64,000 nucleotides of DNA, taken from assembly GCF_009931435.1 (NCBI RefSeq), contig NZ_CP043414.1, one strand, 5' to 3'. Origin of the DNA: Escherichia coli. GTDB taxonomy: Bacteria > Pseudomonadota > Gammaproteobacteria > Enterobacterales > Enterobacteriaceae. Shown here piece by piece: positions 8,362 to 28,200 of this stretch. The notes under the pieces are model-generated. The model saw only the letters and a list, made by a program, of their open reading frames with translations, was not told the origin of the DNA and did not search any database. The position numbers and the translations under genes are program-made. Position 1 is the first letter of the stretch. Every line of letters starts with the position of its first letter.

Positions 8362-9519
8362 ATGGAGCGCAACGTCACGCTCGATTTTGTTCGCGGCGTC
8401 GCCATTCTGGGGATCCTGCTATTAAACATCAGCGCCTTTGGGCTACCAAAGGCGGCTTATCTCAATCCCGCCTGGTACGGCACTATTACGCCGCAGGATG
8501 CATGGACCTGGGCATTTCTCGATCTCATCGGCCAGGTGAAATTCCTCACGCTTTTTGCGCTGCTGTTTGGTGCTGGCCTGCAAATGTTGCTGCCCCGTGG
8601 CAGACGCTGGATCCAGTCGCGGTTAACGCTGTTAGTCTTGCTGGGCTTTATTCACGGTTTATTGTTCTGGGACGGCGATATTCTGCTGGCTTACGGGCTG
8701 GTGGGCTTAATCTGCTGGCGGCTGGTGCGCGATGCGCCATCGGTAAAAAGCCTGTTTAATACAGGCGTCATGCTTTATCTGGTGGGGCTTGGCGTTTTGC
8801 TGTTATTGGGGCTGATTTCCGACAGCCAGACCAGCCGCGCCTGGACGCCGGATGCATCGGCTATTTTGTATGAAAAATACTGGAAGCTTCACGGCGGCGT
8901 TGAAGCGATCAGTAATCGTGCCGATGGTGTTGGCAACAGTTTACTGGCACTGGGCGCACAGTATGGCTGGCAACTGGCAGGGATGATGCTCATTGGTGCG
9001 GCGCTGATGCGCAGCGGCTGGCTGAAAGGGCAGTTCAGCTTACGTCACTATCGTCGTACTGGTTTTGTGCTGATGGCGATTGGGGTGATCATTAACCTTC
9101 CTGCCATCGCCCTGCAATGGCGGCTGGACTGGGCCTATCGCTGGTGCGCCTTTTTACTTCAGATGCCGCGGGAACTGAGTGCGCCGTTTCAGGCGATTGG
9201 CTATGCGTCGCTATTTTATGGCTTCTGGCCGCAATTAAGCCGCTTTAAGCTGGTTCTGGCAATCACCTGCGTCGGACGGATGGCGCTGACCAACTATCTA
9301 TTGCAAACGCTGATTTGTACCACGCTTTTTTACCACCTCGGTTTGTTTATGCATTTTGACCGCCTGGAGCTGCTGGCGTTTGTTATTCCGGTATGGCTGG
9401 CGAATATCCTCTTCTCTGTTATCTGGCTGCGTTACTTCCGCCAGGGGCCGGTGGAATGGCTCTGGCGTCAGTTAACTTTACGTGCTGCCGGACCTGCATT
9501 ATCTAAAACATCAAGATAA
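8362..9519 (+). CDS. yeiB: DUF418 inner membrane protein YeiB
   Basis: 385-aa hydrophobic ORF in the conserved position after folE. Confidence 0.85.
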   Translation: MERNVTLDFVRGVAILGILLLNISAFGLPKAAYLNPAWYGTITPQDAWTWAFLDLIGQVKFLTLFALLFGAGLQMLLPRGRRWIQSRLTLLVLLGFIHGLLFWDGDILLAYGLVGLICWRLVRDAPSVKSLFNTGVMLYLVGLGVLLLLGLISDSQTSRAWTPDASAILYEKYWKLHGGVEAISNRADGVGNSLLALGAQYGWQLAGMMLIGAALMRSGWLKGQFSLRHYRRTGFVLMAIGVIINLPAIALQWRLDWAYRWCAFLLQMPRELSAPFQAIGYASLFYGFWPQLSRFKLVLAITCVGRMALTNYLLQTLICTTLFYHLGLFMHFDRLELLAFVIPVWLANILFSVIWLRYFRQGPVEWLWRQLTLRAAGPALSKTSR

Positions 9520-9549
9520 CGATCTGGATCACATTCATTAACAAAATGG

Positions 9550-9584
9550 TTGTAACCGTTTCCATTGCTGTGACTCGATTCACG
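9550..9584. promoter_or_regulatory. galS promoter: GalR/GalS-type operator (ttgtaaccgtttccat, 9550-9565) next to a CRP site (TGTGActcgatTCACg, 9569-9584)
   Basis: Match to gal operator consensus GTGTAAnCGnTTnCAC and to CRP TGTGA-N6-TCACA; galS is known to be autoregulated and cAMP-CRP dependent. Confidence 0.45.
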
Positions 9585-20702: not shown

Positions 20703-20796
20703 TTAATTCGTAAAACGTGCTACCGATCACATTAAGAATTCTCAGCATAGTTGAATTACAGGGAAGTAACATCGGGCGAGTGCCCAGTTCAGCACA

Positions 20797-25614: not shown

Positions 25615-26808
25615 ATGACTAAAGTGACACGCGCAGTAATTGTGGGAGGCGGGATCGGCGGTGCGGCAACTGCGCTGTCACTGGCCCGCCAGGGGATCAA
25701 AGTGGTGCTGCTGGAAAAGGCGCATGAGATCGGTGAGATTGGCGCAGGTATCCAGTTGGGGCCAAATGCGTTTTCGGCGTTGGATAGTCTTGGTGTTGGC
25801 GAAATCGCCCGCCAACGTGCAGTATTCACCGATCACATCACCATGATGGACGCGGTGAACGCCGAAGAAGTGGTGCGTATTGAAACCGGGCAGGCCTTTC
25901 GTGACCATTTCGGCGGCCCTTACGCGGTGATCCACCGCGTTGATATTCATGCCTCGGTGTGGGAAGCGGTACTGACGCATCCGAACGTGGAGTATCACAC
26001 CTCCACAAACGTCGTTGATATTCGCGAGACGCCGGACGATGTCACCGTTTTCGACGATCGAGGTAATAGCTGGAGCGGCGATATTTTGATTGGCTGTGAT
26101 GGCGTGAAGTCAGTGGTGCGCCAGAGCTTATTAGGCGATGCGCCGCGCGTCACCGGTCATGTGGTCTACCGTGCGGTTATCGATTGTGCGGATATGCCGG
26201 AAGATTTACGTATTAATGCGCCGGTATTGTGGGCGGGTCCGCACTGTCACCTGGTGCATTATCCTTTGCGCGGCGGCAAGCAGTATAACCTGGTGGTGAC
26301 ATTCCACAGTCGCCACCAGGAAGAGTGGGGCGTGAAGGATGGCAGTAAAGAGGAAGTGCTTTCCTATTTTGAAGGCATTCACCCGCGTCCTCGCCAGATG
26401 CTGGATAAACCGACGTCATGGCGACGCTGGTCAACGGCCGATCGTGAACCGGTAGGGAAATGGGGGACTAACCGCATTACGCTGGTGGGCGATGCGGCCC
26501 ATCCGGTGGCGCAGTATATGGCACAAGGTGCCTGTATGGCGCTGGAAGATGCAGTCACGCTGGGTAAGGCGCTGGCGCAGTGTGAGGGTGATGCGGCGCA
26601 AGCTTTTGCGCTGTATGAGTCGGTACGTATTCCGCGTACCGCGCGCATCGTCTGGTCGACCCGTGAAATGGGGCGGGTTTATCACGCCGCAGGGGTAGAA
26701 CGTCAGGTACGTAACCTGCTGTGGAAAGGGAAATCGCAGGCAGAGTTTTATCGCGGCATGGAGTGGCTGTACGGCTGGAAAGAAGATAACTGTCTGCAAC
26801 CACGCTGA
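25615..26808 (+). CDS. FAD-dependent aromatic monooxygenase (3-hydroxybenzoate 6-hydroxylase-like)
   Basis: N-terminal GGGIGG FAD-binding fold and GDAAHP motif; final gene of the gentisate cluster. Confidence 0.85.
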   Translation: MTKVTRAVIVGGGIGGAATALSLARQGIKVVLLEKAHEIGEIGAGIQLGPNAFSALDSLGVGEIARQRAVFTDHITMMDAVNAEEVVRIETGQAFRDHFGGPYAVIHRVDIHASVWEAVLTHPNVEYHTSTNVVDIRETPDDVTVFDDRGNSWSGDILIGCDGVKSVVRQSLLGDAPRVTGHVVYRAVIDCADMPEDLRINAPVLWAGPHCHLVHYPLRGGKQYNLVVTFHSRHQEEWGVKDGSKEEVLSYFEGIHPRPRQMLDKPTSWRRWSTADREPVGKWGTNRITLVGDAAHPVAQYMAQGACMALEDAVTLGKALAQCEGDAAQAFALYESVRIPRTARIVWSTREMGRVYHAAGVERQVRNLLWKGKSQAEFYRGMEWLYGWKEDNCLQPR

Positions 26809-26837
26809 GTACTTCTTACCCAATCAGGTGCACGGAC

Positions 26838-26880
26838 GGTCCCCTCGCCCCTTTGGGGAGAGGGTTAGGGTGAGGGGAAA
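26838..26880. repeat. GC-rich compound palindrome (cccctcgcccctttggggagagggttagggtgagggg), terminator-like
   Basis: Nested inverted repeats seen directly after the monooxygenase stop. Confidence 0.4.
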
Positions 26881-26967
26881 AATCTTGCCCGAATTAATCA
26901 GTAAGTCAGTTTGTCTGCAAACACCAGAGGCGCTAACATAGCGCCTCATTTTTTTGCGGGTGATGAT

Positions 26968-27915
26968 ATGCGTGTGTTACTGGCGCCGATGGAGGGTGTA
27001 CTCGACTCTCTGGTGCGTGAATTGCTGACCGAAGTTAACGACTACGATCTGTGCATCACCGAGTTTGTCCGCGTGGTGGATCAACTGCTGCCGGTAAAAG
27101 TTTTTCATCGCATTTGCCCGGAGCTACAAAACGCCAGCCGAACGCCATCCGGTACGCTGGTGCGCGTGCAATTGCTGGGTCAGTTCCCACAATGGCTGGC
27201 AGAGAACGCCGCCCGTGCGGTGGAGTTAGGTTCCTGGGGCGTGGATCTTAATTGCGGCTGTCCGTCGAAAACGGTTAACGGTAGCGGCGGCGGGGCGACA
27301 CTACTCAAAGATCCTGAACTCATCTACCAGGGTGCAAAAGCGATGCGTGAAGCTGTACCGGCGCATTTGCCCGTCAGTGTGAAAGTGCGCCTGGGCTGGG
27401 ACAGCGGTGAGAAGAAATTTGAAATCGCCGATGCGGTTCAACAGGCTGGCGCTACGGAGTTGGTGGTGCATGGGCGGACAAAAGAGCAGGGTTACCGCGC
27501 GGAGCATATTGACTGGCAGGCGATTGGCGAGATTCGCCAACGGCTGAATATTCCGGTGATTGCCAACGGTGAAATCTGGGACTGGCAGAGCGCGCAACAG
27601 TGTATGGCGATAAGCGGCTGTGACGCGGTGATGATTGGTCGCGGAGCGCTCAATATTCCCAATCTGAGCCGAGTGGTAAAATATAACGAACCGCGAATGC
27701 CGTGGCCGGAGGTGGTTGCTTTGCTACAAAAATATACCCGTCTGGAAAAGCAGGGCGATACCGGGTTATATCACGTTGCGCGGATTAAACAGTGGTTGAG
27801 TTATTTGCGTAAAGAATACGATGAAGCAACAGAATTATTTCAGCATGTTCGGGTGTTGAATAATTCCCCTGATATTGCAAGGGCTATTCAGGCAATTGAT
27901 ATCGAGAAACTCTAA
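26968..27915 (+). CDS. dusC: tRNA-dihydrouridine(16) synthase DusC
   Basis: N-terminus [33 protein letters not shown]; start trimmed from the track ORF. Confidence 0.9.
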
Positions 27916-27960
27916 GAAACCATAGTGATGTTTTTTGACAATGTCTTAGCTCTTTATCAA

Positions 27961-28200
27961 TAGGCCGCACGGTTGTTTGGTGGCGTCAAAATCGCCGAGG
28001 CGTTCCCTGAAGGCCGGGGCAGCCCACATGGATGTGGGCTGAGGGCGCGTTTTACAGGGATGTTACCTCGCGCCCGACCCGGTAGCCGTAAGGGATAAGC
28101 CGAGGGCACCGCGCAGCGGCGATTTTGTTCGCCAGAGCCCGGGGGTGCAGGGGGCGGCGGCGACTGGTCGCCCCTTGCGCGCTCCTTGCGCTAGTGATTA
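27961..28200. other. GC-rich non-coding element with long-range inverted repeats and a perfect internal palindrome
   Basis: tggcgtcaaaatcgccg (27983-27999) pairs with cggcgattttgttcgcca (28118-28135); palindrome gcccacatggatgtgggc at 28022-28039; no ORF of 60 aa or more. Confidence 0.3.

Follow-up and report, generated by a model that had tools for sequence, protein, structure and literature searches.

The 64,000-nt stretch of Escherichia coli DNA analyzed here (contig NZ_CP043414.1; hereafter the 64-kb window) contains a GC-rich palindrome in the 159-nt spacer between mhbM (25615-26808, plus strand) and dusC (26968-27915, plus strand). The first of these genes encodes 3-hydroxybenzoate 6-monooxygenase and is the last of the series mhbT-gtdA-hydrolase-maiA-mhbM; the second encodes tRNA dihydrouridine(16) synthase and is the right-hand backbone gene. 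Both were assigned from the RefSeq annotation of a 100% identical record, together with the list of open reading frames in the case of mhbM. The palindrome starts 33 nt past the mhbM stop codon, and its position raises the question of what it is, how it came to lie there and whether it does anything. The initial annotation had considered it either a terminator or one of a family of dispersed intergenic repeats, marking the insertion junction of a gentisate island. The explanation that best accounts for the evidence taken jointly, to which we assign a probability of roughly 85%, is that the palindrome is a copy of the BoxC repeat that arrived secondarily in this spacer, where it would form a non-terminating 3' UTR hairpin and be mostly a tolerated passenger.

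The 37-nt sequence cccctcgcccctttggggagagggttagggtgagggg has a single exact occurrence in the window, at 26841-26877 on the plus strand, within the segment 26838-26880. Sequence and pairing analysis divides it into three plus-strand blocks: a C-rich arm, CCCCTCGCCCC (block 1, 26841-26851); a G-rich arm, GGGGAGAGGG (block 2, 26855-26864), whose pairing with block 1 includes one G.A mismatch; and a second G-rich arm, GGGTGAGGGG (block 3, 26868-26877), which is the other possible partner of block 1, with one G.U wobble, and which constitutes the third strand in a published triplex model (Holder et al., 2015, PMC4666352). The linkers are TTT between blocks 1 and 2 and TTA between blocks 2 and 3. 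Folded as RNA, the pairing of block 1 with block 2 reaches -16.7 kcal/mol and that of block 1 with block 3 reaches -18.8 kcal/mol, while the unconstrained optimum, at -21.0 kcal/mol, stacks both. Since block 1 can pair with either G-rich arm and the optimum combines the two, its earlier description as a compound palindrome with nested hairpins is a fair one.

Extended with its flanks to 61 nt, the element folds at -27.7 kcal/mol (z = -1.64), and 13 of 200 composition-matched shuffles fold as well. This folding energy is unexceptional for the base composition of the stretch, and energy alone does not prove significance; that the palindrome is not a product of chance follows instead from its recurrence across genomes, and no matches to the motif are expected in shuffles of the window. 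A scan of positions 26000-28000 against Rfam (E ≤ 10) returned only chance-level matches, the one overlapping the palindrome being Antizyme_FSE (18 bits, gathering score 40, E = 1.5), and Rfam contains no family for BoxC. Nine aligned BoxC copies contain no compensatory covariation because their core is nearly invariant, and this comparison gives no verdict either way on structure.

Judged by its sequence, the palindrome is a copy of BoxC, a repeat that has also been published as the PIT element, as TM_ECO (here of type 'A mm') and as the HPG1 G-quadruplex/hairpin motif. Its 36-nt core (26842-26877) is identical to entries 7, 11 and 15, all of type 'A mm', among the 23 TM_ECO copies tabulated for K-12 (Holder et al., 2015, PMC4666352, Table 1), and the HPG1 sequence GGGAGAGGGTTAGGGTGAGGG (Kaplan et al., 2016, PMC5100583) lies within the palindrome. 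The name BoxC follows the equation by Holder et al. (PMC4666352) of the TM_ECO motif with the BoxC repeat of the 1990s and with Hoyne and Maher's PIT element. BoxC is in any case an already described repeat, known since the 1990s, for which literature copy numbers under the names BoxC, PIT and TM_ECO run from 22 to 32 per genome, with 22 copies reported in K-12 by Petrillo et al. (2008). The mhbM-dusC locus is not among the 23 K-12 copies, as K-12 lacks the mhb cluster. The window copy shows the three-block core of the family, CCCTC(G/T)CCC(C) - loop - GGG(G)AGAGGG - TTA or CCG - GGGTGAGGG(G), 34-37 nt in length, and sits, as these copies always do, between genes.

A genome-wide search with a 55-nt query bore out the proposal that the palindrome belongs to a dispersed intergenic repeat family and is not unique to this locus. 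Of 5426 complete E. coli genomes, 5425 contain matches to the query, at 90,281 places in all, with a median of 18 per genome (range 1-33) and 20 in K-12 MG1655, set against the ~20-30 dispersed chromosomal copies expected of BoxC in an E. coli genome. The recurring copies are ~90-100% identical to the query, and those fetched from nine other loci, including yihR/yihS, recA/recX, tldD/aaeR, cpxA/yiiM, argE/ppc, thiQ/yabI and lptG/yjgR, are all intergenic. They share a near-invariant ~39-nt core plus the flanks GTGCACGGACGGT ... AAAA..GCNC (alignments A1 and A7, with copies from 7-9 intergenic loci). The conserved flanks agree with the description of BoxC as a unit of ~50-56 bp that reaches past the triplex core; in the window, the 5' flank GTGCACGGACGGT, the 37-nt core and the 3' flank AAAA..GCNC together occupy about 26828-26890 on the plus strand.

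An association of BoxC with mobile elements was considered and rejected, the repeat being essentially absent from plasmids and phages. Only 59 of the 90,281 places lie on plasmids. Near-full-length matches number 27 in 72,556 plasmid records, several of these being megabase-sized records filed as plasmids, and 50,697 phage records yielded three matches. No BoxC was found in ~1.2 Mb of mhb loci from other genera, save for two partial matches elsewhere in one Serratia locus, a sample too small to define taxonomic range. A search of the 64-kb window for looser copies (20-mer, up to 3 mismatches) returned none.

BoxC entered the mhbM-dusC spacer secondarily, and in only part of the E. coli population. 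A 61-nt spacer without BoxC is present in E. coli strains Combat13F7 and E69, in several Citrobacter species, in Pseudocitrobacter and Pluralibacter, and in a metagenome-assembled genome (MAG) labelled Raoultella; an E. albertii contig that ends within the spacer matches the BoxC-less form as far as its sequence goes. When the window is aligned with these E. coli strains, Citrobacter and other genera (alignment A3), a BoxC-carrying segment of ~114 nt, with approximate boundaries at about 26813-26925, replaces ~16 nt (TTTAATCCGCTGACCG) of the ancestral 61-nt spacer, and empty-site genomes regain homology with the window at about 26923. mhbM adjoins dusC in 504 of the 5426 E. coli genomes, and the spacer carries BoxC in 364-378 of these 504. 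By subtraction, about 126-140 cluster-bearing genomes, or about a quarter, lack it, a direct count of the BoxC-less junction (154) being blurred by joined pieces. The window and strain 21B8 carry BoxC-bearing alleles whose mhbM sequences are only 92.1% identical and whose spacers differ by ~5%; the presence of BoxC in cluster alleles ~8% apart indicates that its addition is old and has been stably inherited.

Filled and empty sites compared at mhbM-dusC, recA-recX and cpxA-yiiM differ by the replacement of unequal segments, with no target-site duplication at any of the three. At cpxA-yiiM, one E. coli strain carries an inverted BoxC pair (type B plus type A; locus L006, 860-1060), and K-12 has REP/BIME there (locus L095, 3420-3524). 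The mhbM-dusC spacer itself holds a REP-like insert (..GCGCCGCCATCCGGCA..) in Salmonella enterica subsp. diarizonae (locus L025, 2600-2711) and in Citrobacter sedlakii (locus L019, 9195-9304). Together with BoxC, these REP-like inserts imply independent colonization of the spacer by two repeat families.

The terminator proper of the mhb operon is a separate hairpin outside the BoxC element. A terminator scan identified an intrinsic terminator at 26927-26955 (plus strand), consisting of a 9-bp stem, GAGGCGCTA/TAGCGCCTC, with a 3-nt loop (hairpin 26927-26947) and a run of seven T at 26949-26955. It lies 50 nt downstream of the BoxC hairpin, and both hairpin and T-run are conserved in 14 of 14 aligned sequences from E. 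coli (K-12 included), Citrobacter, Salmonella, Pseudocitrobacter, Pluralibacter and the Raoultella-labelled MAG. The T-run ends only 12 nt before the dusC start codon, the arrangement is conserved across the genera aligned (loci L010, L011, L019, L021-L023, L025, L027, L035, L043, L046 and L063), and K-12 retains the hairpin even without a co-oriented upstream gene. The hairpin may therefore do more than end mhb transcription, for instance terminate transcripts from both directions or serve dusC as a leader or attenuator.

Published RNA 3' ends give an indication of what BoxC hairpins might do in transcripts. For MG1655, curated Term-seq 3' ends are tabulated by Adams et al. (2021, PMC7815308, supplementary files 1 and 3); these data, which the BoxC papers of 2015 and 2016 predate, were checked at the 23 K-12 copies. 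Ends fall past the hairpin at four of them: 164636(+), 4 nt past the BoxC hairpin; 3781065(+), the primary lldD 3' end, 3 nt past it; 3959467(-), which shares the orientation of the window copy, 4 nt past the inner block 1:block 2 hairpin; and 624567(-), 11 nt past the hairpin, at the margin of the conserved flank. One more curated end, the fifth, maps 4 nt upstream of copy no. 8, and the remaining K-12 BoxC loci have none, so that 4 of 23 copies are positive, or 5 with the end at copy no. 8. The one end among the four that is scored, that of lldD, rates 1.32 as an intrinsic terminator, under the cut-off of 3.0, and is located inside a significant Rho termination region. Ends positioned at BoxC hairpins are the pattern expected if transcripts that terminate further downstream are shortened as far as a stable stem-loop. 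Trimming by 3'-5' exonucleases is known to proceed to stable stem-loops, and REP elements define and stabilize RNA 3' ends in this manner.

By analogy, we infer an exonuclease-barrier role for BoxC in the mhb 3' UTR. The element would be transcribed within this 3' UTR, where pairing of block 1 to either G-rich arm would create a stable hairpin of about -21 to -28 kcal/mol. Rather than terminating transcription, the hairpin would act as a barrier to 3'-5' exonucleases, defining or stabilizing RNA 3' ends as REP elements do. Behind the true terminator it could be at most a second barrier, and its added stabilizing effect may be nil, since the terminator hairpin 50 nt downstream would be the first. 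Most probably, then, BoxC at mhbM-dusC is a passenger that the locus tolerates, and its influence on mhb mRNA stability is modest at most. As single-stranded DNA, the three blocks can also adopt a triplex or G-quadruplex, which others have demonstrated in vitro but not in vivo, and such folding may add to local intergenic variability. The locus forms a natural three-state series (no cluster, cluster without BoxC, cluster with BoxC) that, combined with the Term-seq 3' ends at several BoxC hairpins, makes a simple test of a 3'-UTR role feasible.

A more ambitious version of this role starts from the observation that the window copy extends beyond the usual unit. blastn with a 118-nt query matched positions 22-112 to the argE-ppc copy at 84.6% identity, including a 3' module, GTAAGTCAGTTTGTCTGCAAAC, located at 26901-26922 on the plus strand and delimited by this match, by alignment A6 and by a motif scan. 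The module, GTAAG..AGTTTGTC(A/T)GCAA, also occurs beside K-12 copy no. 6, as seen in the sequence given by the Term-seq table, and in looser form at recA-recX. These matches suggest a long form of BoxC of ~95 nt, reaching to ~26922 in the window. In the copies that have it (argE-ppc, loci L007 and L096; recA-recX, locus L004), the module (GTAAG..AGTTTGTCWGCAAWC) follows the BoxC core at ~32 nt; both the window copy and the recA-recX copy have a terminator hairpin directly 3' of the module. It is conceivable, though we consider it unlikely, that this long form (core plus GTAAG..AGTTTGTCWGCAAWC) is a discrete cassette that has repeatedly replaced stop-codon-to-terminator spacers, in competition with REP, and serves as an exonuclease-blocking 3'-UTR hairpin. 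Were this the case, BoxC would acquire a specific function at the level of RNA as well as a definite preference for certain targets; in thirty years neither has been established.

A role at the level of DNA is less plausible. Oligonucleotides of this sequence adopt triplex and G-quadruplex structures in vitro, as detected by CD and NMR (Holder et al., PMC4666352; Kaplan et al., PMC5100583), the two alternative DNA hairpins of the palindrome are nearly equal in folding energy (-8.9 vs. -8.3 kcal/mol), and BoxC lies ~90 nt upstream of the dusC start codon. These features could be taken to indicate a functional switch between non-B DNA (triplex or G-quadruplex), hairpin and duplex, with control over dusC transcription or over replication and recombination nearby. 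Such a switch is nevertheless very improbable: in vivo DMS footprinting did not support a stable triplex (Holder et al., PMC4666352), published surveys found BoxC-type motifs unassociated with gene class, distance or orientation, and dusC functions behind a spacer devoid of BoxC in most E. coli and in every other genus examined. The greater intergenic variability reported around TM_ECO (Holder et al., PMC4666352) would argue for an effect at the DNA level, yet BoxC at this locus has been stably inherited over ~8% divergence. Our literature search on the function of BoxC, PIT and TM_ECO returned nothing further than Holder et al. (2015) and Kaplan et al. (2016).

A further idea, raised in part by the initial annotation, is that BoxC marked or mediated the gain or loss of a gentisate island as an att-like or recombinogenic junction element. 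BoxC does fall within the last ~115 bp of the DNA absent from K-12, and TM_ECO loci vary between strains more than control intergenic regions (Holder et al., PMC4666352). In E. coli SY033 (locus L012, NZ_CM185152.1, 2489-8600), moreover, the whole mhb cluster is found at a different chromosomal site, beside IS66, ISEc60 and prophage-like genes; its mhbM is followed by a degenerate BoxC-like hairpin lacking the third block, inside which homology to the window ends.

The distribution of the cluster nevertheless contradicts an insertion. In a scan for MhbM using one genome per species, the cluster was syntenic with yohJ and dusC in E. albertii, several Citrobacter, Klebsiella, S. diarizonae, Kluyvera, Pseudocitrobacter, Pluralibacter, Shimwellia and others, and MhbM and DusC identities fall in parallel with phylogenetic distance. 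Given this yohJ-dusC synteny across many genera, the 3-hydroxybenzoate/gentisate cluster is ancestral to the enterobacteria and the K-12 state is a deletion; the cluster has been deleted in most E. coli, not inserted, and the term island in the sense of an insertion does not apply. The empty yohJ-dusC junction of K-12, the comparison recommended at the outset by the initial annotation, gives BoxC no junction role. This 238-nt region consists of the yohJ-proximal 75-86 nt, an unrelated filler of ~95 nt and the terminal 58 nt of the BoxC-less spacer. As K-12 thereby keeps the BoxC-less ancestral spacer up to the mhbM stop codon, the deletion must have occurred in a BoxC-less background, with BoxC uninvolved. 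The ~95-nt filler matches nothing in the cluster-bearing loci, leaving no remnant of the cluster detectable in the K-12 empty site; it has a hairpin of its own, with an 11-bp stem (AGAGGGATTGC..GCAATCCCTCT; locus L010, about 9480-9575).

The boundaries of the segment point the same way. Comparison with the K-12 yohJ-dusC intergenic region places the left boundary of the K-12-absent segment at 20738/20739, where there is neither BoxC nor any other repeat. No direct or inverted repeats bracket the segment, no second BoxC copy occurs at its left boundary or anywhere in the 64-kb window, and the annotation of the 100% identical record shows no integrase or other mobility gene over ~9 kb to each side. 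Among sampled matches from 5425 genomes, there is likewise no empty site that keeps BoxC and no deletion endpoint inside it. A part for BoxC in the gain or loss of the cluster is thus scarcely credible, and the palindrome cannot be read as the mark of an insertion.

Within E. coli, mhbM alleles (window 25809-26808 compared with loci L011, L012, L013 and L043) are only 91.5-95.8% identical, and dusC alleles are 96-99.7% identical (E69 excluded), a difference that points to old polymorphism or to introgression of the cluster. In Serratia marcescens (loci L034 and L038), MhbM is 90% identical and its neighbours are neither yohJ nor dusC, which suggests transfer. An MhbM 98% identical to that of the window is encoded on a 9-kb contig of a MAG labelled Collinsella sp. 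(locus L014), probably misbinned Escherichia DNA.

The least credible proposal, that BoxC itself ends mhb transcription as a Rho-independent terminator or acts bidirectionally as a terminator between mhbM and dusC, can appeal to a GC-rich hairpin 33 nt past the last stop codon, to the coincidence of some K-12 copies with Term-seq 3' ends and to the speculation of Kaplan et al. (PMC5100583) on a terminator role of G-quadruplex forms, but it founders on the lack of a T-run after the hairpin (AAAAATC on the plus strand, ACCGTCC on the minus strand) and of any call by the terminator scan, on the conservation across genera of the canonical terminator at 26927-26955 as against the absence of BoxC from the corresponding spacer of every other genus examined and of about 126-140 cluster-bearing E. 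coli, on the sub-threshold score of the lldD 3' end, and on reporter assays in which, as relayed by Holder et al. (PMC4666352), Hoyne and Maher (2002) saw no promoter or terminator activity of PIT elements. The annotation of the window should accordingly read BoxC repeat at the palindrome and operon terminator at 26927-26955.

Set against known systems, the element departs from several classes that it resembles. With intrinsic terminators it shares a GC-rich stem-loop 3' of a coding region, but it differs in having no 3' U-tract, no conservation at the orthologous position, a low published terminator score and, as cited above, negative reporter assays. It does not behave as an att-like junction repeat of an island, being present as a single copy in 64 kb with no bracketing repeats, next to a cluster that is present in related genera. 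MITE-like repeats such as ERIC/IRU, RUP and NEMIS/Correia are likewise short, non-coding, dispersed and palindromic, and are polymorphic in presence between strains. BoxC differs from these in its lack of target-site duplications and of clean insertion boundaries in three comparisons of filled and empty sites, and in a terminal inverted repeat of only ~4-6 nt, and we know of no partner transposase. Its assignment to the MITEs was rejected on account of the unequal segment replacement, free of duplications, at mhbM-dusC, recA-recX and cpxA-yiiM.

REP/BIME (PU) elements offer a closer parallel. They occupy the same niche, the spacer between stop codon and terminator or between convergent genes, where they form stable 3' UTR hairpins associated with RNA 3' ends, and the two families alternate at shared sites, with REP-like inserts in the mhbM-dusC spacer of S. 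diarizonae and C. sedlakii and REP/BIME in place of the BoxC pair at K-12 cpxA-yiiM. The BoxC sequence, however, is unrelated: it has no GCCGGATG..CGGC-type consensus, inspection of the window element revealed no similarity to the REP consensus palindrome (GCCGGATGCGGCG...-type), and its three blocks contrast with a simple palindrome. BoxC is also present in ~20 copies, as against several hundred for REP, and to our knowledge it has no link to a RAYT transposase. With the repeat described as BoxC, PIT, TM_ECO and HPG1, on the other hand, the window element differs in nothing essential. It shares the core, the three-block architecture, the TTA second loop, the flanks, the intergenic site and the chromosomal multi-copy dispersal of that family, and is distinguished within it as a long form whose 3' module is common to some copies only.
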